Positions 30,875-41,793 of a stretch of DNA of 64,000 nt are shown piece after piece. Source of the stretch: an uncultured Chloroflexia bacterium (GTDB taxonomy: Bacteria > Chloroflexota > Dehalococcoidia > DSTF01 > WHTK01). The first letter of the stretch is position 1; each line of letters opens with the position of its first letter. Under the pieces are notes generated by a model. That model was given only the letters and a program-made list of their open reading frames with translations. It was not told the DNA's origin and searched no databases. The stretch is taken from contig CAVTBL010000017.1 in NCBI GenBank assembly GCA_963732945.1, positions 324,224-388,223 of the forward strand, read 5' to 3'. A program made the translations under genes and the position numbers.

Positions 30875-32538
30875 ATGGCGAAGCCGGTGATCCTCGCCGT
30901 GGATGACGACGTCGAAGTCTTGCGCGCCGTTGCGCGAGACCTGCGTTCGAAGTACGCCGAGCAGTATCGCATCATGCGCGCGTCGTCCGGTGAGGAAGCC
31001 CTCGACGCACTGCGAGAGCTGCGACTCGTCGAGGAGCCTGTCGCTCTGCTGCTCGTCGATCAGCGCATGCCGGGCATGACCGGCGTCGAGTTCCTAGAGA
31101 AAGCGCTCGAGCACTACCCGAAGGCGCGCCGTGCCCTCCTGACTGCCTACGCCGATACCGACGCCGCGATCCGGGCAATCAACGAAGTGCACATCGACTA
31201 CTACCTGATGAAGCCGTGGGACCCGCCAGAGTTGAACCTGTATCCGGTTCTCGACGACATGCTGGACGACTGGTCCGCCTCCTACAAGCCGGCGTTCCAG
31301 GGTGTCCGACTGATCGGCCATCGCTGGTCGCCCGAGGCTCACCGCGCTCGCGACTTCCTGGCGCGCAACCAGGTCCCATACCAGTGGTACGAGCTCGGTA
31401 CGGATTCTCAAGCAGAGGAGCTGCTACGCGCCGCGAACGCCACGTCCGCGGCTCTGCCGCTCCTCTTGCTCACCGATGGTCCGTGCTGGAATCGCCTTCC
31501 AACGAGACCATCGCCGAACGCCTCGGCATGCACCGGCCGCCGGAGCTGCCGCTGTACGACGTCGTCGTCGTCGGAGCCGGTCCCGCCGGGCTGGCCGCGG
31601 CCGTGTACGGCGCCTCCGAGGGCCTCAAGACGGCGCTGGTAGAGGCCGACGCGGCCGGCGGCCAGGCCGGCAGCAGCTCTCTGATCGAGAACTACCTGGG
31701 CTTCCCGTCCGGGTTGTCCGGCGCAGACCTGGCACGTCGAGCCTTGACGCAGGCGCGCCGGTTCGGCGCCGAGTTCCTGCTGACGAGCGAGATCACCTCG
31801 CTGGAGACGCGGGAGGGCTCGACCACCCTGCACCTCAACGACGGCGCTTCGATCAGTGCGCTCTCGGTCGTCATTGCCACTGGCGTCACCTACCGGCGCC
31901 TCGAAGTTCCGGGCTGCGAGGAGTTGACGGGTAGAGGCGTCTACTACGGCGCGGCGAGCAGCGAGGCAGAGTCGCTGGCCGGCGAAGACGTCTTCATCGT
32001 CGGCGGCGCCAACTCGGCCGGCCAGGCAGCGGTGCATTTCGCCAGGTCCGCACGCCAGGTCACAATGCTCGTGCGCGGCAAGTCGCTCTCGGCCTCGATG
32101 TCGCAGTACCTGGTCAAGCGCATCGCCGAGACCGACAACATCGAGGTCCTCTACGAGACGCACGTCGAACGCGCCGTCGGTAACGATCGTCTCGAGGCGC
32201 TGGAGCTGGGTAACGCCGCCGGCGAAACCTGGACCGTGCCGGCCACCACGCTATTCGTGTTCGTGGGCGCCACGCCGCGCACGGACTGGCTCGGCTCCAC
32301 CGTTCTGCGCGACAAGTACGGCTTCATCCTCACCGGTCCTGACCTGCTCAACGAGAAGTCCTACGCCACCGGCGGGACGGCGGCAAGAATGCCCTTCCTG
32401 CTCGAGACCAGCGCCTCGGGTGTATTCGCGGCCGGCGACGTGCGCCACGGCTCCGCGAAACGAGTCGCCGCCGCCGTGGGCGAGGGCTCGATGGCCGTAA
32501 TGCTGGTCTGGCAGTACCGCGCATCCATCGGCCTCTAA
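30875..32538 (+). pseudogene. fused response regulator / thioredoxin-disulfide reductase, frame-disrupted
   Basis: REC (VILAVDDD..LLLVDQRMPGMTG..KPWD) plus a glutaredoxin-like linker in ORF 30875..31642. TrxR (VVVVGAGPAGLAAAVY..GGANSAGQAA..) is in ORF 31216..32538. The join ..LLLLTDG / SVLESPSNETIAERLG needs a 1-nt correction near 31476-31482. Confidence 0.85.
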
Positions 32539-32629
32539 TACGAAGCCGCCTGCGCCCAGCCCGACGCGCCGCAGCCTGCTAACGCTACGAATTAATTGTT
32601 TCGTGGATCAGGCCGCGTAGCGCCGGCGG

Positions 32630-33841
32630 TTAGAAGCCGCTCGTGCCGTTGGGTGTGCCGAGGCCGCTGGGGCCGTCGAAGCCGGTGCCGCCTGCGCACA
32701 AGTAGGTGATGCAGAAGCCGTTCCTGCCGCTAACGACGTCGTAGAACGAGCCGCCGTGTGCGTACGGGTAAGAGCCGTACGTGGTAGAGCCGGCGTTGCC
32801 CGCGAGTGCGTAGATGCCGGCGATGATCGGCGTCGAAAGGCTGGTGCCGCCGACCTGGAACCAGCCGGTCGAGCACTTCAGCAGCTGGCAGTACGGAGTC
32901 GAGTCGTACACGGCCGCGCCCGTTTTCGGGTCGGCGTCTGCTGAGACGTCGGCGGTGGTACGGCGCGGGCAAAGAGGGTCCGTCTGCCAGGCAGGCTTCG
33001 GCGAATAGAGGCTGCAGCCGCTGCCCGTCCGCGCCCATACGCTCTCGGAGGCGCGCGTGTTGTCGGGGTTGAGGTTGAGGGTGGTCCCGCCGACAGCCGT
33101 CACATATTGCGACGACGCCGGGTATTCGGCCCCGTAACCGCCATCGCCCGTGGCGAACGTGATTGCGACGCCGGGGCGGTTGAAGTGACCATCGATCAGG
33201 GCAGAGTTCTGGACGAGGAACTCATGGTTACCCCAGGAGTTCGAGACCACGGCAGAGTGCGACGTGGCGTAATCCTCCGCGATCAGCAGGTTGAAGAAGC
33301 TGCTGTTCGCGGCTTCGACGAGGAGGATCTTGCAGTACGGGCACACTGCGTGGGCAATCTGGGTGTCGAGCGAAATCTCCAGGGCCCAGCCGCCGTTGCG
33401 CCACGGCAAGACCGTGCCGCCGAACTGGTTAACTTTCGTGAAGCAGCCGTCACCGGTCGTACAGGCAGGCAGCCCGAACGTGGTGCTGTAGGAGTTGAGG
33501 TCGCTCTCCGCCGTGGGGTCGTCGTAGGCATCGACGATGGCGATGGTCTGGCCGTTCCATACCCAGTCGGGCTGCACTTCCGAGGGTGCGATCTGCGGCA
33601 GCCCGTAGGCCGTCTGGAGCTGCAGCGGACCGTAGCCCGAAGGCAGGCTCTCTGCCTGAACGTCGCCTCGCTGGTTCGTGACCACCTGCGCATAGCAGCG
33701 TGCCTGCCCCTGAGCCGCGGGAGCGGGACAGGCCGCGAGATAAGACAGGAGAGGAGTCGGTGTTGCGGCGGAGGCTGAACCAGCGATCGCAAACAGAGTG
33801 AGAATTGCCAACGCAAATATGGCGGTGATTTCGCGTTTCAA
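32630..33841 (-). CDS. S53 (sedolisin/kumamolisin-like) secreted serine peptidase
   Basis: Sec signal (..AIAGSASAATP), IAIVDAYDDP..DL..FGLP, WALEISLD (E/D of the catalytic set), and VGGTSLSTPIIAG (nucleophile Ser). Confidence 0.7.
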   Translation of the reverse strand: MKREITAIFALAILTLFAIAGSASAATPTPLLSYLAACPAPAAQGQARCYAQVVTNQRGDVQAESLPSGYGPLQLQTAYGLPQIAPSEVQPDWVWNGQTIAIVDAYDDPTAESDLNSYSTTFGLPACTTGDGCFTKVNQFGGTVLPWRNGGWALEISLDTQIAHAVCPYCKILLVEAANSSFFNLLIAEDYATSHSAVVSNSWGNHEFLVQNSALIDGHFNRPGVAITFATGDGGYGAEYPASSQYVTAVGGTTLNLNPDNTRASESVWARTGSGCSLYSPKPAWQTDPLCPRRTTADVSADADPKTGAAVYDSTPYCQLLKCSTGWFQVGGTSLSTPIIAGIYALAGNAGSTTYGSYPYAHGGSFYDVVSGRNGFCITYLCAGGTGFDGPSGLGTPNGTSGF

Positions 33842-34010
33842 CCTCTTCTCCTTATCCCGGATGATTCATCGGTCCCTGTTGTCGTTTCGAGAGGATGCTA
33901 CCACTGCCGACAACCGCGCAGCCGGCTCCGATATCGAATTCCCATGCGGATAACTGCACGACTCCGCGCCGGGCAGTTGAGGGAGGAAGAGCAACGTTGG
34001 GCGGGGAAGG

Positions 34011-34370
34011 CTACGCCGCGTGGCGCAGCGCTTCCAGGATCGCGGCGAGGAACGTCGACTTCTCGTCCACGTCGCCCGTCAGGCGTTTTGCGCCGGACTG
34101 AATAGCGCGCCACTCGATGGCCGGCTCCCAGTTCGAGCTGTAGCTCAGGATCGGCGTGCTCGCGAGGGCGCCCTTGAGCGCCGGCAGGAACCACGAGTCC
34201 GCGTCGTCGACGCCGACGAGGACAACCCCCGGCTGGGTCTCCTGGGCGAGACGGACGGTTGCGATCTCCGGCGCAGCCTGAATCAGATTGATGCCCGGGA
34301 TGCCGTCGAAGTGCTGCGCCACCATCGCTCGGCGCTCGGAGTCCCCATCGATTAAGAAGACGTCATACAC
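34011..34370 (-). CDS. stand-alone receiver (REC)-like domain protein, degenerate
   Basis: 119 aa, (M)YDVFLIDGDSERR..GVVLVGVDD..PILSYSS... CheY-like alternation, but the acidic pocket is non-canonical. GTG start. Confidence 0.45.
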   Translation of the reverse strand: MYDVFLIDGDSERRAMVAQHFDGIPGINLIQAAPEIATVRLAQETQPGVVLVGVDDADSWFLPALKGALASTPILSYSSNWEPAIEWRAIQSGAKRLTGDVDEKSTFLAAILEALRHAA

Positions 34371-34506
34371 GGCAGGCCCTTCCTCGTTCTCAAGGCTTCA
34401 AACAGCCCACGCATACTATGTTCGTACAGTTTGCTTCCGATAATTACCCATGATTCTAGTCGTAACGAGCACAGGCAACTTTCTGACGGTCGACGAAGGA
34501 GTCGCG

Positions 34507-34659
34507 ATGCGACGGACTGACGACGTGCTGGTCTGCGTGGACGCGCGCGGCAAACGGCTGGTGGCCTTCAGGCACCAGGACGTGAGGGCGTTCGCGCGGC
34601 AGTCGAACTCGGATTACTGCGTATGGGAGTTCCCCTGGCAGCTCCCAAACGCCGCCTGA
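34507..34659 (+). CDS. small hypothetical protein (50 aa)
   Basis: ATG at 34507 lies 6 nt after GAAGGAG. Third-position GC is strong. Convergent with the RTX-like gene. The ORF-track version starts at 34450. Confidence 0.35.
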   Translation: MRRTDDVLVCVDARGKRLVAFRHQDVRAFARQSNSDYCVWEFPWQLPNAA

Positions 34660-34673
34660 CGCAGCTCCTACCC

Positions 34674-35467
34674 TCAGACCACGCTCTCGCTACCTACTTC
34701 GACGCGTCCGCCGTTGACGTGGCGGTCGGCGACGCCTGCGCCGTCGGTGAGGTCCGCGGCGTAGAGGTCGCGGACGATCGGGACCGGCGTACCGTCGGCG
34801 ATGGGCGCGGCGTCGAAGTCGCGGTCGGCGATCGGCGTACGGGTAGGCGTGGCGGTATCGGTGTGGCCGTCGCGCGTGACGATCGCGGGCGCGCTCGACT
34901 GCTGCGACGCGGTGTTGGATGCGCGTCGTCGTCCTCGTGCGAGCCGTCCTCGCAGTTCGTGGGCGTGCCGCCGCCGTTACCCGCGTCGCAGTAGTCGGTG
35001 CCGGGGCCGCCGTCGATGACGTCGGGGCCGTTGCCGCCGTAGATGCTGTCGTCACCGGCGCCGCCGTAGATGTAATCGCGGCCGTTGCCGCCGTACAGCC
35101 TGTCGTTGCCGTCGCCGCCGAGGATCACGTCGGTCGAGTTGCCGCCGTAAATCGTGTCGTTGCCGTCGCCGCCGACGATGCAGTCGCCCTGGTTGCCGCC
35201 CGTAATCGTGTCGTCGCCGCCGAGGCCGAAGATCAGGTCGTGGCCGTTGCCGCCGTGCAGGTCGTCGTTGCCCGGCGTGCCGTAGATCACGTGGTCGAAG
35301 TGCGACAGGCCGTGGTCGATGCACTCCTGCGGCACGGGCGGCGGGATGTTAGCCGCCTCGATGGTGAACACCTGCACCGTGCCGCCGTTGACGACCAGCG
35401 ACGCCGCCGAAGCGCCGATGACACTCAACATGATCATGCCCACGACGAACCAGATGAGCTTCCGCAT
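34674..35467 (-). pseudogene. RTX-like (hemolysin-type Ca-binding repeat) protein with N-terminal signal/anchor; frame break before the C-terminal domain
   Basis: [34 protein letters not shown].. is followed by about 10 GGxGxD nonapeptide repeats. After ..[10 protein letters not shown] the ORF-track frame becomes Pro/Arg/Ser/Thr-rich. The -1 frame has near-uniform GC3 and reads [82 protein letters not shown] with stop at 34674-34676. The shift lies near 34915-34925. Confidence 0.65.
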
Positions 35468-35476
35468 GGGCCGTTG

Positions 35477-35833
35477 CTACTTCGACGCGTCCGGCTTGTA
35501 GGCGAACTCGTAGGTCACGCCGCCGTCCGGCACGAACAGCAGCTCGCGTCCTCCTGCGCCTGGCTGAAGATGATCTTGCCGTCGCGCTGCGCCATCTTGG
35601 CCAGGTCCTGCAGGCTCGAGAGGCGGATACGCTGCAGCGCCGTAGTCTTCGACTGCCTCGACGGGCACGAGCTTGACGCCGATGCGTGTCAGCAGCTGCA
35701 CCGCTGCGCCGCGCCCGAGGCCGAGGAACACGACGGCGCCGAAGACCGCCCCGGCGCCAACCGCGAGCACGGCAAGCAGGCCCGCTACGAGACGCGCCCG
35801 CGACACGCTCAGCGTCGTGACGAGCAGGCTCAC
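35477..35833 (-). pseudogene. membrane protein X3 (TM + small C-terminal domain), two compensating frame breaks
   Basis: GTG overlaps the X2 stop (GTGA). VSLLVTTLSVSRARLVAGLLAVLAVGAGAVFGAVVFLGL is the TM segment. The middle segment codes well only in another frame (LQRIRLSSLQDLAKMAQRDGKIIFSQAQED). It then returns to ..ELLFVPDGGVTYEFAYKPDASK*. Shifts lie near 35631-35648 and 35540-35560. Confidence 0.5.
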
Positions 35834-36681
35834 GTGGTTGGTCGAGTGCTGTGCTCGACGACGGTCTTCGGCTGGCTGGCCTGCAGGTCCGTCGCGGGCG
35901 TGATCGTGGTCTTGTCGTAGGTGAAGGTGAGGGGCGAGCTGTAGGTCTCGTTGACCTGCTTGCCGTCGACGGTGCCCGTGACGCTGACGTGCGGCACCAC
36001 CGTTATGTCGTATTTGCCCGCCTTGTAGTTCGTCTCCTTCTCGATCTGGTCGATCGTCGTCTGGATCGGCCTCAGGTCGATCACCGCGTTGCCGTTGGCC
36101 GTCGAGCCGTTGAACGCCGTCGGCGCCATCAGCGTCGACGTGTCGCTCCAGCCCGGCGTGCCGCTGGGCTGCACCAGGAGGTCGGCGCTGATCTGGCCCT
36201 GCAGGTCGGTCGCGGTTGCGCCGGTCAGCCCGTAGCCGAAGCCGACCTCGATGCTCTGTGACCAGGGCCGTGTAGATCGGCGTGGCCGCCGGCGCGCTGG
36301 CCGCGGGTCGCGGCGCCGGCGGGGCTAGCGCCGGGGGTGGTAGTTCCAGCGTTCGCCGGCGCCGCGTCTGCGGCCGTCACCGGGCCGATCTTGCCCAACT
36401 GGTAGACCAGCGACGGCGTGACGTTGAACGTGTAGCGTAGCTCAGCGACTGCGTGTACGCGGTCTGCGTCACGCTGGTGTGTGCGAGGGCGAGGTCGTCA
36501 GGGCGGGGAGCGCCAGGAGGCCGCGGCCAGCGCCAGCAGCGCCGCGACGCCGAGGCCGGCGAACGACCACGCCGGCGGCCTGCATCTGCAGCCGTGACGT
36601 TGCCGCGTAGCGCCGTCGCGTGCGCCTGCGCTGCCGTCTTGCGCGGCGGAACCGTCCGCGCTCGCCTACTTGAGTTGCCAT
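35830..36681 (-). pseudogene. membrane protein X2 (Arg-rich N-terminus, TM, beta-rich ectodomain), multiply frame-disrupted
   Basis: ATG at 36681 lies 7 nt after GGGGAGG. The best-coding frames give MATQVGERGRFRRARRQ.. / WSFAGLGVAALLALAAASW (TM) / DDLALAHTSVTQTAYTQSLSY / RYTFNVTPSLVYQLGKIGPV.. / ..IEVGFGYGLTGATATDLQGQISADLLVQPSGTPGWSDTS..KYDITVVPHVSVTGTVDGKQVNETYSSPLTFTYDKTTITPATDL..*. At least 4 frame switches (near 36570-36582, 36500-36510, 36430-36442 and 36250-36290). Confidence 0.5.
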
Positions 36682-36683
36682 AC

Positions 36684-37185
36684 TCAGACCTCCCCGCCGT
36701 CGTCGCTTTTCTTTTTGAGTGTCTGTGTCTCCGGCGATGCCGATGCTGGCGAGGCCGCCGAACAGCGCCGCCATGTAGGCCGGCTGGCGCAGCTTGAGCA
36801 CGAGGCTGCCCTTGCCGGACATGTGCAGCCACGCCTTGCCGATCACGTCGGCGTCCTTCGGGTGCCAGCCGTCGACCCACGAGTTGTTGACGCCCTGCGT
36901 GTCGTAGCCGTTGACGCCGTCGCCGCCGATGATGCGGTGGATGACGTTGTTGCCGGCCCCGTTTTCGCCCGCCGGGATCGTGTAGGCGACGATGTCGCCG
37001 ATCTTGTAGTGCGCCTGCCGGTGCGTGACCACGAGGTCGCCGGTGTAGTACTTCGGCTCCATGCTGTGACCGGACACGATGATGTAGCCGGTCGGGCCGC
37101 CGACGAACGTGGGTCGCAGCAAGACGAACCACGAGGCGAAGACGACGAGCGTCAGCAGAGGTAGCAGAAATTTGACCGGCTTCAT
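36684..37185 (-). CDS. signal peptidase I, S26B (SipW/Sec11 archaeal-eukaryotic type)
   Basis: N-terminal TM, VSGHSMEP (nucleophile Ser), GDIV, VIHRI (general-base His), TQGVNNSWVD (the TKGDNN..D box), and a C-terminal TM (AALFGGLASIGIAG). The ORF-track tail to 36469 is Arg-rich read-through. A 1-nt shift in the A5/A4 runs near 36700-36716 gives ..KKKSDDGGEV* with TGA at 36684-36686, 2 nt before the X2 ATG. Confidence 0.8.
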
Positions 37186-37252
37186 TCCGTTGCCTTACTG
37201 AGCGTGGCTGGCCCGCACGAAAGTGGGCCTGAATCACCTCGCATGCGTTAGT

Positions 37253-37287
37253 CTGGAGTGGGGCCGGCGAAGCCGGCCCCACTCCAG
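37253..37287 (-). promoter_or_regulatory. intercistronic GC-rich stem-loop between X1 and the signal peptidase gene
   Basis: CTGGAGTGGGGCCGGC (37253-37268) pairs perfectly with GCCGGCCCCACTCCAG (37272-37287), a 15-16 bp stem. It starts 8 nt after the inferred X1 stop. No U-tract follows it on the coding strand. Confidence 0.7.
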
Positions 37288-37294
37288 CGTCTGA

Positions 37295-37726
37295 CTAGGG
37301 GTAGGTGTCGTAGACGAAGACTTGGATCGAACCTATGTGCGTGCGGATCGAGCGTTGGGTCGATCGTAGCTGATGCGGACTCGCCCATGCAGTACCTGCA
37401 ACCAGCGTGCCTCCGGTGAAGGTCGGCGGGAATGTCCGAAGCTGCCCGTCCAGATGTTGTGCCGCCAGCGTCCTTGACGATGACGTCCATCTCGCCGCCT
37501 GCGCAGGTCGATGTCAAGGCCGTCCACGAGTGATCGCCTGAGATCTGGAATTCGCCAGTTGTGCTGTAGTGCACTGTGACGCCGTCCGTATCGCACTGGA
37601 CGTTGCTCAGCGTGCCTGCCTGGACGGCGCCGCCAGTCCGACAGTCAGAGTGGCAGCGGCGCCGTAGGCGACACCGGCAACAGCCAGGGCGGCCACGATG
37701 CCGATCAAGAACTTGAATTTGAACAC
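37295..37726 (-). pseudogene. small secreted protein X1 (candidate SipW substrate/fibre subunit), frame-disrupted
   Basis: AAGGAGA-N7-GTG (37726). (M)FKFKFLIGIVAALAVAGVAYGAAATLTV is the signal peptide, then a frame switch near 37636-37645 to ..TGGAVQAGTLSNVQCDTDGVTVHYSTTGEFQISGDHSWTALTSTCAGGEMDVIVKDAGG.. The best 3' frame ends ..IGSIQVFVYDTYP* at 37295-37297. A second switch lies somewhere in 37330-37440 and the exact path is unresolved. Confidence 0.45.
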
Positions 37727-38508
37727 TTAGTGGTCTCCTTGCTCGGACCCGCCCGCGAGCGCGGACAGGCCTACGTATCCGTACGTTGTCGGTAGCTATG
37801 CGTGTTCAAGGGGTAGTGGCATCACCTCCCGTTGGGCAAACGGGAGGAGTAAAAGACGCAACTTCTTTCATATATCAAGGCCAGGCGCCGCGAATCGCAG
37901 AGCCTGGCCCTGATACGATGAAAGAGCAGCGGAGTGCGCGTAACTCCCGTTGCCCCGGCGTCCTCGTGGTTGCCGCCACGAGGCGCCTCTCTTCTATTCA
38001 GACAACAGCCCGCGCGGTTTCGAGGCCGCGCTCGGCTGTTCGCCCGCGTTTGTGGATCGTCACGCGGACGCTGCTATCCGGGTCGAGCGATTGCTAGATC
38101 AGGGAGACGAGGCGTTCGGTACGCGCGCGCAACTAGGCACGCAGCACCGGGTCCGTAGACTCGCCCGCCCAACCACGCAGTCAGACCGGCACCCGATAGC
38201 AAAGGTCAGGCATCACCTGAACGTGACGATGACGGCCCGACTTGGGCCTGCGTACCCTCCTGCCGCTGCTTCCTTGCGGCCCCGGCGTTACGCCGGTGGA
38301 GGCGGGGTGACGTTCATACCGAACGCCGCCCAACTATCGCGGACAGGACAGATACGTGTCAACGTTTTCTTGTCAGAATCTGAACATAACGCGCGACAAT
38401 GTGTAACATTTAACAACGACAACTCATGAATTAGGATGCCTTAGCGCTCTAACGAGCGCAGCGCGGCGAATTGTGCCGCCGAGGATCTGCTGCTGTGCGC
38501 AGGCCGGA

Positions 38509-39865: not shown

Positions 39866-41793
39866 TCAGGCCTTCGAGGCGTCGTACCAGAGCGTGTGCC
39901 AGGTCTCGGAGGGCGCCGTAATCGTGGACTTGGCCGTAAACGCGTCGAAGTTGCCGATGAACGGCCACGCCAGGCTGAAGCCGCTGGCGATGCCGGGCCA
40001 GGGCACCGCCGGCATTTGTAGCGCCATCTCCTTCTGCAGGTCGGTCAGGATGCCCAGGCGCTTGGTGGCATCGAGCTCGACACGCTGCGCCTCGATCAGG
40101 CTCTCGGTCTTCTGGTACCAGGGGAATACGGTGCGCAGCAGACACTGCGGCGGGTTGGCCTTGACGTTGAACCGCACCGTGATCTGGTTGTCGATATCGC
40201 CGCTGACACCGGGCCCCTGGTTCAGCGTGACGCCTTCGTACTCACCACCACCGTTGAAGTACTTGACGTTGAACTCGTTGGTCGGAACGCTGTCGAGGGT
40301 GAGCGCGAACAGGTTTCCTTCCTGCAGCATCTGCTGAAGGGCCTGCTTGCTGGCGCTGCAGGTTCGAAGTAGGCACTGCTGACGTGCGCCGGGAAGGCGA
40401 GCGGCTGGTTGAAGCCCGCCGCCTGCATCTGCTTCTTGGCTTCCGACGGGTTGAGCTTGAAGTAAGCCGCGCCTTCGCCGAGGCCCGTCCCCTTGGGGTC
40501 GATCCAGTACGGCGGCTCGCCGGCGGCGAAGTGGGTGTGCCAGCGCGCTTCGACCGGCAGGCCCTGCTTCTCGAACACGCTCACGTTGTAAAACACGTCG
40601 ATGAACGTGTCGCGGTCGATCAGCATCGACATCGCGCGGCGCACGCGTACGTCCTGGAACGGCGAGCCATCGAGTAAGCCGAAGCTAATCATCGACGGCC
40701 GGGAGTCCGGGAAGGAGTCCGCGTACATATTCAGCTTCGGCTGTTCCTTCTTAACCGGCAGGGTGTCGTCGCCGGGGATGGCGCCGCCGCCGGGGGTGAA
40801 GGCGCCGACCGTGCCGGTAATGAACTGAGCGCGCCGCTGGGCGTACTCCGAGATGATCGGCATGCTCATCTTGTCGAACAGCGTCTGCTTCAGGTGCCAG
40901 GTGTCGTTGCGGCTGTAAGTGAAGCCGACGCTCGGCTCCCACTTGTCGAGGCGCCAGGCGCCCGAGCCGCGCATGTCGGCCTTGGGGTCGAACTTTCCGT
41001 CGGCCTCAACCGGCATCATCCAGAGGTAACGCTGAAAGGCGAAGCGTGAGATCTGGTTGGCCATCGGGAAAGCCAGCTTGACCACGACGGTTTTGTCGTC
41101 GGGAGCTGTAACCGAGGAGACCGGCGAATTGGCGGATAGATCATTGAAGAACTCGCCGCGTGATACGCCCGTCGCGTGGAACTTGTTAGCGCTAAACACC
41201 ACGTCCTGCGCATTCATAAGCCGGCCGTTTGTCGGTGGCCGCGGGTCGAGCTTCAGGTTGCCCCGCAGCTTGAAGGTGAACGTCAGGCCATCCGGGGACA
41301 TCTCCCAGGACTCGGCGCCGTCCGGATCGACCTCGCCCTGCGGTGTCTTTGGGTAAGGAGCGGGACGGTAAAGGACCAGCCGGCTGTAGCTCCAGGGGGC
41401 GTGAGCGGAGCCGATGGTGACGCCGTACGGGTCCAGGTTGAGCACATCGGCGGTTAGAGGATTGACCCAGGTGCCGCCGGGCTTGGCGCTGGACGTCGTG
41501 TCCGTCACCTTGGCGAGCAGTGGCGAAGTCGCTGGTCCGCTGCTCGAAGCGCCGCTCGACGTCGCTCCGCTGGCGCTACTGCTGCCGGACGCGCTGCTAC
41601 CGGACGCGGCGCCGGTTGACGAGCCACTGCTGGAGCTGCCGCCACTACTGCCGGCGCTACTGTTGTTGCTGTTGTTGCTGCTGCCACCACAGGCGGCGAG
41701 GAAGGCAGCGCCAAGCGCCAGGCTGCTCGATGCAGCGAGAGTTCGGCGCCGTGAGATGCGCCTGGCCAACGTGCTTTGCCAGTAGTTATTCAC
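39866..41793 (-). pseudogene. family-5 ABC substrate-binding lipoprotein, paralog 2, frame-disrupted
   Basis: MNNYWQSTLARRISRRRTLAASS..LAACGGSSNNSNNSS.. gives a Tat-like signal, a lipobox and a long Ser/Gly/Asn linker. The body is in ORF 40222..41793 and the C-terminal 154 aa are in ORF 39866..40330. The break lies near 40355-40365. Confidence 0.8.

Follow-up and report, generated by a model that had tools for sequence, protein, structure and literature searches.

A signal peptidase-DUF5305 fusion and a family of small secreted proteins at a conserved locus of Chloroflexota and Actinomycetota: a candidate export and maturation module for a surface fibre

We describe here a locus built around a dedicated signal peptidase in an uncultured Chloroflexia bacterium (GenBank assembly GCA_963732945.1, placed by its GTDB lineage in the Dehalococcoidia). 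It lies in a stretch of 64,000 nucleotides of contig CAVTBL010000017.1 that was analysed as a whole, hereafter the window, where a list of open reading frames (ORFs) and a three-frame translation place every feature of an initial annotation on the minus strand between positions 32630 and 37726. The conserved core consists, in this order, of a gene for a small secreted protein of an unnamed family, here called X1, a hairpin, a gene in which a signal peptidase I of the endoplasmic reticulum (ER)/archaeal type is fused to DUF5305, and a gene for an RTX beta-roll protein; these are the three of the five minus-strand genes that are conserved together. X1 and the RTX protein share an N-terminal leader, and the synteny of X1 with the peptidase is nearly universal among related loci. 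We put at about one in two the probability that the locus represents a conserved three-gene export and maturation module, present in many soil Chloroflexota and Actinomycetota, that builds a surface fibre by strand donation; the cleavage site, the donation of a strand, the polymerisation of X1 and a role of the RTX protein at the tip are suggested by analogy with known fibres and by a structural model.

Results

X1-family genes stand upstream of the peptidase in two phyla

Related loci were gathered by a genome scan, with one genome per species, that used an alignment of peptidase-DUF5305 fusions and gave 80 loci, to which six fetched earlier or later were added to make 86; a scan that started from the peptidase sequence of the window yielded 98 pattern matches and no confirmed relatives. 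The survey itself comprises 85 of these loci (L086, a 1-kb contig fetched afterwards, was left out) and employed hidden Markov models (HMMs) for X1, the peptidase and DUF5305. X1-family genes (E < 1e-6) were found on the same strand as the peptidase and at most 4.5 kb upstream of it in 78 of the 85 loci, in both phyla, with one copy in 30 loci, two copies in 43, three copies in two, and four, six and seven copies in one locus each. Elsewhere in the flanks of the 85 loci there were only nine X1 matches. Three of the seven loci that have no X1 upstream are cut by a contig end, and in two others (L005 and L008) the small proteins upstream bear another leader. The proposal of the initial annotation, that a dedicated peptidase of the SipW/Sec11 type stands here beside its probable substrates, is therefore upheld by the related loci. 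DUF5305 was found in 11 of the 85 loci and always as a fusion, in Dehalococcoidia, Chloroflexia, Anaerolineaceae and one member of the Acidimicrobiia.

The peptidase and DUF5305 form a single polypeptide

Its motifs identify the peptidase, amino acids (aa) 1-165 of the fusion, as an ER/archaeal-type signal peptidase I (S26B) with Ser-His and not Ser-Lys motifs, in agreement with the initial annotation. It scores 59.5 bits against TIGR02228 (cut-off 51.85) as compared to 30.7 bits against the bacterial-type TIGR02227 (cut-off 47), and its motifs SGHSMEP, IHRI and GVNN..D align with SMEP, HR and GDNN..D of human SEC11A/C. Across 18 aligned peptidase-DUF5305 fusions S41, H83 and D105 are invariant and D99 is nearly so. 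By analogy with related systems, we infer that this enzyme cleaves the neighbouring proteins.

The initial annotation had placed two separate genes, X2 and X3, after the peptidase, the start of X3 overlapping the stop of X2 as GTGA. No stop separates the peptidase ORF (start 37185) from what had been taken for the Arg-rich N-terminus of X2, and the orthologue P0004, encoded in the Dehalococcoidia metagenome-assembled genome (MAG) L001 (GCA_036279235.1; 81% nucleotide identity to the window locus), is a single intact ORF of 569 aa that covers the peptidase, X2 and X3. The GTGA overlap turns out to be an artefact of one of nine frameshifts in the window copy. Since the peptidase, X2 and X3 share one reading frame, the seven genes claimed for the locus come down to five, namely X1, the peptidase-DUF5305 fusion, the RTX protein, a 119-aa protein and a sedolisin. 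The initial comparison of X2 and X3 with DUF5305 proved correct: PF17231 matches the repaired window protein at 32.2 bits (cut-off 29) and is recorded for 21 of the 24 homologues that were returned.

From sequence and hydropathy analysis the fusion is predicted to start with a first transmembrane (TM) segment, followed by a catalytic domain on the outside, a weaker hydrophobic segment by which the chain would re-enter the membrane, an Arg-rich cytoplasmic loop (19 Lys or Arg vs 2 Asp or Glu), TM3, an extracellular beta-rich DUF5305, TM4 and a cytoplasmic C-terminal domain. This predicted topology matches the published description of DUF5305 (bioRxiv 10.64898/2026.01.04.697558).

X1 belongs to a large family whose mature N-terminus is its most conserved part

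X1 has a signal peptide. Judged by an A-x-A pattern, cleavage is predicted after the invariant Ala24, and the mature protein would then start ATLTVGLGAVQAGT... and comprise about 116 aa and 11.6 kDa, with an isoelectric point (pI) of 4.05 and a conserved Cys pair. A word-indexed search found three close homologues (P0001-P0003, E = 3e-47 to 1e-15), and a profile search of 1.84 billion representatives gave 244 clusters at E <= 0.001, nearly all of 105-165 aa, where a cluster is defined at the level of 50% identity; 90 members were aligned. The family is carried by at least 80 species-level genomes, which span the Gaiellales, Solirubrobacterales, Frankiaceae, Nocardioides/Marmoricola, Acidimicrobiia, Dehalococcoidia, Chloroflexia and Anaerolineae, and cultured carriers include Marmoricola sp. 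Leaf446, Nocardioides caldifontis and N. aequoreus, the X1 homologues of the first two being WP_056540549.1 and WP_148573385.1.

None of the 90 aligned members matches any Pfam or NCBIfam model, and those looked up are named 'hypothetical protein' by their sources with one Nocardioides exception. This exception, in the P0189 cluster (Nocardioides aurantiacus, UniRef100_A0A3N2CYX3), bears the source name 'Alternate signal-mediated exported protein'. Models of that name are linked to SipW and are, we presume, those of the TIGR04088-04090 type; the name suggests that an older TIGRFAM-based pipeline had linked the X1 class to SipW-type peptidases. The alternate-signal NCBIfam models matched none of the 90 members at E <= 0.01, nor any of 10 members at E <= 10.

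After the signal peptide the family consensus reads A(100%)-A(86%)-x-L(90%)-x-V(77%)-x-G-G-x-(L/I/V)-Q-A-G(90%) and continues C(99%)-D(93%)-x-D-G(92%)-V(90%), with a second near-invariant Cys-x-Gly 29 residues on. In the numbering of X1, per-position identity is 100% at A24, 90% at L27, 90% at G37, 99% at C44, 93% at D45 and 92% at G48. Residues 24-49 carry 2.52 bits per column, as compared to 1.36 for the remaining mature protein, and the mature N-terminus (A-A-x-L-x-V-x-G-G-x-x-Q, with the predicted cut between the two Ala) is the most conserved part of the family.

X1 is modelled as a small beta-sandwich and is unlike TasA

An AlphaFold2 model of X1 built on the 90-sequence alignment reached a predicted local distance difference test (pLDDT) score of 79.7 and shows a six-strand beta-sandwich over residues 50-142; the larger alignment was needed, as a model from three sequences was unusable (pLDDT 49.8). 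From residue 41 onwards the means of ten-residue blocks are 67-94, mostly 77-94, with the dip to 67 at residues 101-110. Residues 24-40, the most conserved segment, are left unplaced at a pLDDT of 43-58. A Foldseek comparison of the model, signal-peptide helix included, with the PDB gave nothing at E <= 0.001 and no match to TasA, AbpA or thread; the best matches were generic immunoglobulin (Ig)-like domains, of GH2 enzymes, at E >= 0.07.

We note that the X1-family profile, when compared with PDB sequences, picked up only the N-termini of nanobody and antibody heavy-chain variable domains (VH), at E ~0.007 and in part through a PelB signal peptide. In the alignment (A3, positions 27-44 of P0001) the VH pattern L-x-x-S-GGG-LVQ-x-GG-SLRLSC stands against L-x-V-x-GG-x-LQ-AG-xxxx-L-x-C of X1. 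We take this as resemblance and not homology, probably a convergence of Ig A/B-strand patterns.

Given that X1 adjoins a SipW-type peptidase, it might be thought a divergent TasA/camelysin (Peptidase_M73) in an orthodox operon of the tapA-sipW-tasA type, and by eye there is a weak likeness of its 'AGTL' to the 'SGTLDL' of TasA. We consider this highly improbable. None of the 90 family members matches Peptidase_M73 (E <= 0.01), DUF1102 or a related Pfam model; hhalign gives 2.6% probability for the family against TasA (with an approximate TasA sequence); and the mature protein has 105-120 aa across the family as compared to about 230 aa for TasA. The mature N-terminus, with its consensus A-x-L-x-V-x-G-G-x-(L/I/V)-Q-A-G, also has no donor-strand signature of an aromatic residue at +2 and an acidic one at +4. 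On the hhalign and Foldseek results X1 is not demonstrably a member of the TasA superfamily, and at the level of sequence and modelled fold the TasA assignment is effectively refuted; the remark in the initial annotation that the neighbouring proteins do not resemble TasA or camelysin thus holds for X1. Two other kinds of pilus subunit were considered and rejected. For a type IV pilin, no prepilin motif of the G-F(T/S)LIE type (cut after the Gly) was found in X1 and no prepilin peptidase among the neighbours; for a sortase-assembled pilus, there was no LPXTG motif and no sortase among the neighbours.

The RTX protein and other cargo carry the same leader

The gene that follows the fusion was initially described as encoding an RTX-like beta-roll protein, and HemolysinCabind (PF00353) indeed matches its product at E = 2e-24 over four stretches. 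In order, the protein has a signal peptide ending in ASA, an X1-type leader, a PPPxPxEC linker, RTX nonapeptide beta-roll repeats and a Pro/Thr/Ser-rich tail, and the X1-family HMM picks up its N-terminus (HMM positions 4-36, E = 4e-5). Leader and linker together occur on proteins downstream of the peptidase in L001, L003, L009, L015 and L016. HemolysinCabind proteins follow the peptidase in these five loci and in L005, so the combination of peptidase and beta-roll partner, which the initial annotation had singled out, is conserved. In L005 an altered leader, AATNT(V/L)P, is found in the small protein and the RTX protein alike.

The leader is also attached to other cargo, in L010 and L048. In the 47 loci of the Gaiellales type a protein of some 215 aa that carries the leader AYAA(S/T)LSVGSWHLWAGSQ stands between the X1 genes and the peptidase, and the one member scanned (L018, 5115-5771) has a DNRLRE domain (NF033679, E = 5e-17). 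Across these loci a single peptidase recurs with a single leader, which heads both the small sandwich protein, encoded once or several times, and one or two larger proteins whose domains are unrelated.

The RTX protein is unlike type I-secreted RTX proteins in that it carries an N-terminal signal peptide, and no type I secretion genes were found among the neighbours here or in L001 and L003-L005. We propose that it serves as a cap or tip partner of X1. The window copy has 257 aa and is without a fibronectin-III-like segment of about 150 aa that is present in the 423-aa orthologue (34694-34950 as compared to L001 2700-3362). In its Pro/Thr/Ser tail, Arg-rich stretches may hide more frameshifts, and only the last 12 residues clearly align to L001.

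The window copy is frameshifted

A frameshift-aware protein-to-DNA alignment revealed nine frameshifts in the window copy of the fusion gene, all of them after residue 200. In X1 there are seven apparent shifts relative to the 145-aa P0001, of which three, within 24 nt, cancel one another and at least four are uncompensated. Shifts are about ten times as dense in X1 and the DUF5305 part as in the rest of the window. This raises the question of whether the locus in this genome is a decaying pseudogene remnant from which no product is made: at least 13 uncompensated frameshifts fall in about 2.1 kb (X1 and the DUF5305 part), the sites of the shifts are not homopolymer runs, and most long genes elsewhere in the window are intact, with ORFs of up to 897 aa.

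We think a pseudogene unlikely. The ratio of non-synonymous to synonymous substitution (dN/dS, by the method of Nei and Gojobori, against intact orthologues) is 0.21 for the DUF5305 part and 0.23 for X1, both frameshifted, and 0.26 for each of two intact parts, the peptidase domain and the N-terminal part of the RTX protein. Substitutions have therefore been filtered by selection in broken and intact parts alike, and the repaired frames of X1 and the fusion contain no stop codons. At least two other genes of the window also switch frame, once each, namely a Response_reg-glutaredoxin-like-TrxR-like gene at 30875-32538 on the plus strand and an ABC substrate-binding gene at 39866-41793 on the minus strand, so that insertion and deletion errors are not confined to the locus. 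Moreover, in L010 (4940-7900; Chloroflexia MAG MFD09730, OY969711.1), an assembly taken to be from long reads, the X1 genes, the fusion and the gene in the RTX position are all split likewise. This fragmentation points to consensus errors and suggests that the locus systematically resists assembly, perhaps from between-strain variation. For these reasons, taken together, we read the shifts in the window as probably consensus or assembly errors, or else very recent lesions.

Layout of the locus

The coordinates of the features are given in Table 1.

Table 1. Features of the locus in the window, with the positions of the frameshifts in the window copies.
Feature	Position	Strand	Evidence
X1 5' leader	37727..37915	-	inverted repeat, second hairpin, AAGGAG ribosome-binding site
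X1, small secreted protein of an unnamed family	37295..37726	-	homologues P0001-P0003, profile search, AlphaFold2 model
Frameshifts in X1	~37633, 37430, 37381, 37337; self-cancelling trio 37541/37528/37518	-	protein-to-DNA alignment
Intercistronic stem-loop between X1 and the peptidase gene	37253..37287	-	folding statistics, compensatory changes in relatives
Signal peptidase I-DUF5305 fusion, one gene	35477..37185	-	TIGR02228, PF17231, intact orthologue P0004
Frameshifts in the fusion	36576, 36518, 36483, 36436, 36305, 36262, 35844, 35644, 35547	-	protein-to-DNA alignment
RTX protein, 'class B' substrate	34694..35467	-	HemolysinCabind match, X1-type leader
Possible small gene, 69 aa	34450..34659	+	ORF list; codon-like third-position G+C ~0.8 (hand count)
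119-aa neighbour, initially called REC-like	34011..34370	-	without Pfam/NCBIfam match
Secreted S53 sedolisin-type peptidase	32630..33841	-	sedolisin and Peptidase_S8 matches

X1 starts with a GTG at 37726, and an AAGGAG lies 7 nt upstream of it, which bears out the strong ribosome-binding site noted initially. Within its 5' leader of about 190 nt lie an inverted repeat of 14 bp (TATCAGGGCCAGGC...GCCTGGCCTTGATA) and, as a second hairpin, CCTCCCGTT..AACGGGAGG; this leader is 90% identical to that of L002, as compared to 81% for the coding DNA. A metagenome scan for relatives of the 5' leader yielded one 1-kb contig only, and as the 5' leader is not conserved in the more distant L086, its conservation could not be extended past one close relative. 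An Rfam search of the window found nothing, and one of the X1 5' leader at E <= 1 found only hairpin-like microRNA noise. The 5' leader could be an operator or a structured regulatory leader.

The stem-loop after X1 was noticed in the initial annotation as a 16-bp stem, and folding statistics and comparison with relatives speak for it. It has a perfect stem of that length, a 3-nt loop and no U tract; a 96-nt stretch around it folds at -48.6 kcal/mol (z = -5.8), with none of 200 shuffles folding as well; and the pairing is kept through compensatory changes in two relatives, L001 and L002, with a weaker stem-loop in L086. Its probable role is that of an attenuator, or of a hairpin stabilising the mRNA, by which the proportion of subunit to machinery is set.

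The row of genes had been described as a co-directional operon. The features then listed do all lie on the minus strand, but between the RTX gene and that of the 119-aa protein, in a gap of 320 bp, there is a plausible plus-strand ORF of 69 aa, so that this is not demonstrably one co-directional operon; the ORF had no match in a Pfam scan and, if real, splits the supposed operon. A sigma-70-like promoter and an intrinsic terminator were looked for in 32400-34800 and none was found. In L001 a convergent, unrelated gene follows the RTX gene.

The two remaining minus-strand genes do not belong to the conserved core. The identification of an S53 sedolisin stands (E = 1.3e-10 against Pseudomonas sedolisin, 1GA1/1NLU, with GGTSLSTP including the catalytic Ser aligned; Peptidase_S8 at E = 7.6e-9), but its membership in the system does not, as a homologue lies near only one of the 85 loci, about 4 kb beyond the peptidase. 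A Pfam scan of the sedolisin found no pro-kumamolisin activation domain, and its signal peptide is of the ordinary Sec type (ASA-AT, cut after the ASA) without the X1 leader. The 119-aa protein had been called an orphan receiver-like (REC-like) protein; we could not confirm this identity, there being no Pfam or NCBIfam match at E <= 0.1 and a best PDB match, to NarL, at E = 0.83, and with homologues in none of the 85 loci it is not part of the system. In 21 actinobacterial loci a pseudo-receiver of about 100 aa follows the peptidase (for instance L018, 6273-6791), in which VLIAEP replaces the acidic pocket and the phospho-acceptor position reads LEP. The 119-aa protein does not match the HMM of this pseudo-receiver, and the idea that it is a conserved component was therefore dropped.

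Discussion

A model for fibre assembly, and a reading without a fibre

We propose that the module works as follows. X1 and the RTX protein would enter the Sec pathway by way of their ordinary-looking signal peptides and would then be cleaved by the dedicated ER/archaeal-type signal peptidase I, a Ser-His enzyme with DUF5305 fused in the same four-pass membrane protein. Cleavage after the invariant Ala would expose the common mature N-terminus A-x-L-x-V-x-G-G-x-x-Q. In X1 this amphipathic N-terminal strand might be donated to the incomplete six-strand beta-sandwich of a neighbouring subunit, and an extracellular fibre of acidic 11-kDa subunits could be linked up by such donation. The RTX protein, which would have the donor strand but no X1 sandwich, may cap one end as a calcium-binding tip or anchor, and the hairpin after X1 might ensure that more subunit than machinery is made. 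The usual logic of pilus operons is seen here in the several paralogous subunits of a locus, the strong ribosome-binding site and the conserved hairpin that follows the first gene.

Several points weigh against a fibre. X1 has no detectable homology to known donor-strand subunits by Pfam, NCBIfam, hhalign with TasA or Foldseek, at the values given above. The conserved N-terminus could serve for recognition by the peptidase and nothing else, or it could represent the first strands of X1's own fold, which AlphaFold did not manage to place, and the likeness to VH A/B strands would fit an N-terminus that belongs to that fold. Most actinobacterial loci have no DUF5305 and a stand-alone peptidase, and the window copy is frameshifted at least 13 times.

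Alternatively, the locus might be dedicated to secretion and maturation only. The leader would then be a recognition tag (an 'alternate signal'), and X1 and the RTX protein would be non-polymeric, calcium-binding proteins of the surface or matrix. Recognition of substrates by their enzyme explains the synteny and the shared leader equally well, and the source name of the N. aurantiacus family member speaks of just such a signal; X1 is unlike known fibre subunits in fold and sequence, and, given its weak likeness to the A/B strands of an Ig V-domain, the N-terminus could join X1's own sandwich. However, a recognition tag does not normally extend some 25 residues into the mature protein, nor is it normally more conserved than the core of the fold. 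AlphaFold leaves the segment off the monomer even with 90 sequences, and the combination of several small paralogues with larger proteins that have just the leader in common is the pattern of major, minor and tip proteins seen at the loci of two fibre systems described below, Tafi and AbpX. On balance we find secretion alone a rather doubtful account of the locus.

If the fibre model is followed further, the X1 family may tentatively be regarded as a new class of acidic Ig-like 'mini-pilins' of about 11 kDa that stand outside the TasA superfamily, are widespread in soil Actinomycetota and Chloroflexota, would be matured by an ER-type peptidase to which its accessory subunit is in some cases fused, and would donate strands in fibres capped by RTX or DNRLRE proteins that have the strand alone in common with X1; we hold this to be a possibility and somewhat short of an even chance. 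If true, it would add a new fibre system in soil lineages that rank among the most abundant and the least studied.

What is new and why it matters

The initial annotation had presented the locus as a candidate undescribed system, and this holds in part. The cargo family is unnamed, and a literature search found no publication on it; a search for the alternate-signal TIGRFAM names brought up nothing beyond the AbpX preprint. However, papers of 2025-2026 report donor-strand fibre loci at which signal peptidase I is paired with DUF5305, as well as the fusion of both in Chloroflexota (PMC11821415; bioRxiv 10.64898/2026.01.04.697558; PMC12337348), of which the preprint notes the fusion in Anaerolinea. 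Already known, then, is a peptidase of the SipW/Sec11 type, with or without DUF5305, beside secreted subunits, and the fusion has been noted in print. New are a cargo family without a model, its breadth across two phyla, RTX and DNRLRE partners bearing the same leader, and a distinct leader motif.

If the fibre model is true, a large family of 244 clusters becomes the subunit of a new extracellular fibre in soil lineages that are dominant and of whose biofilms and adhesion almost nothing is known, and the cultured carriers allow direct testing. On a minimal reading, the locus defines a class of substrates and a probable recognition motif for bacterial signal peptidases of the ER type. The natural single-chain fusions of peptidase and DUF5305 also bear on the organisation of the eukaryotic-like signal peptidase complex.

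Comparison with known systems

The eukaryotic signal peptidase complex resembles the fusion in that its SEC11A/C subunits align with the catalytic domain over the Ser, His and Asp motifs, and in that an accessory module has luminal or extracellular and cytoplasmic parts flanking TM spans, a parallel taken from the AbpX preprint (bioRxiv 10.64898/2026.01.04.697558); homology between DUF5305 and the SPCS proteins is not part of the likeness. It differs in that the bacterial protein is a single-chain fusion with a small dedicated set of substrates.

With the chaperone-usher, donor-strand pilins X1 has in common a predicted six-strand Ig-like sandwich and a conserved N-terminal extension of alternating hydrophobic residues that is unplaced in the model of the monomer. 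Unlike those systems, the present one has no periplasmic chaperone or usher, occurs in hosts that are monoderm or have an atypical envelope, and would be matured by an ER-type peptidase, and the searches found no match in sequence or fold.

The loci of AbpX and the TasA superfamily (AbpX of Pyrodictium, its bacterial homologues, and tapA-sipW-tasA of B. subtilis) likewise have acidic subunits beside a signal peptidase I, the AbpX homologues having a pI of about 4 (bioRxiv 10.64898/2026.01.04.697558), close to that of X1. DUF5305 is a frequent accessory there, calcium is involved, and minor and tip proteins are predicted to join the fibre via a common donor strand (bioRxiv 10.64898/2026.01.04.697558). 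However, X1 has neither the jelly-roll family signature nor a donor strand with an aromatic residue at +2 and an acidic one at +4; there are ten TM helices in the AbpX-linked peptidase as compared to about four in the fusion; and calcium would here be bound by a separate RTX partner and not at the subunit interface.

The Tafi system (haloarchaeal Tat-fimbriae, with TafA/E, TafD and TafG) and its Sec-dependent relatives in Thermococcales and Archaeoglobales also pair an ER/archaeal-type signal peptidase I with DUF5305. By experiment, deletion of TafD, the peptidase, stops both the processing of TafA and the formation of fibres, and TafG (DUF5305) accompanies it (PMC11821415; PMC12337348). As at the present locus, small secreted subunits adjoin the peptidase, and it has been proposed that larger proteins encoded there become part of the fibre. 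The two differ in that X1 is unrelated in sequence, with no DUF1102 or TasA-superfamily signal, and is about half the size; in that export here is of the Sec type without a twin-arginine motif and the peptidase and DUF5305 are one polypeptide; and in that the hosts here are Chloroflexota and Actinomycetota and the partner protein is an RTX beta-roll.

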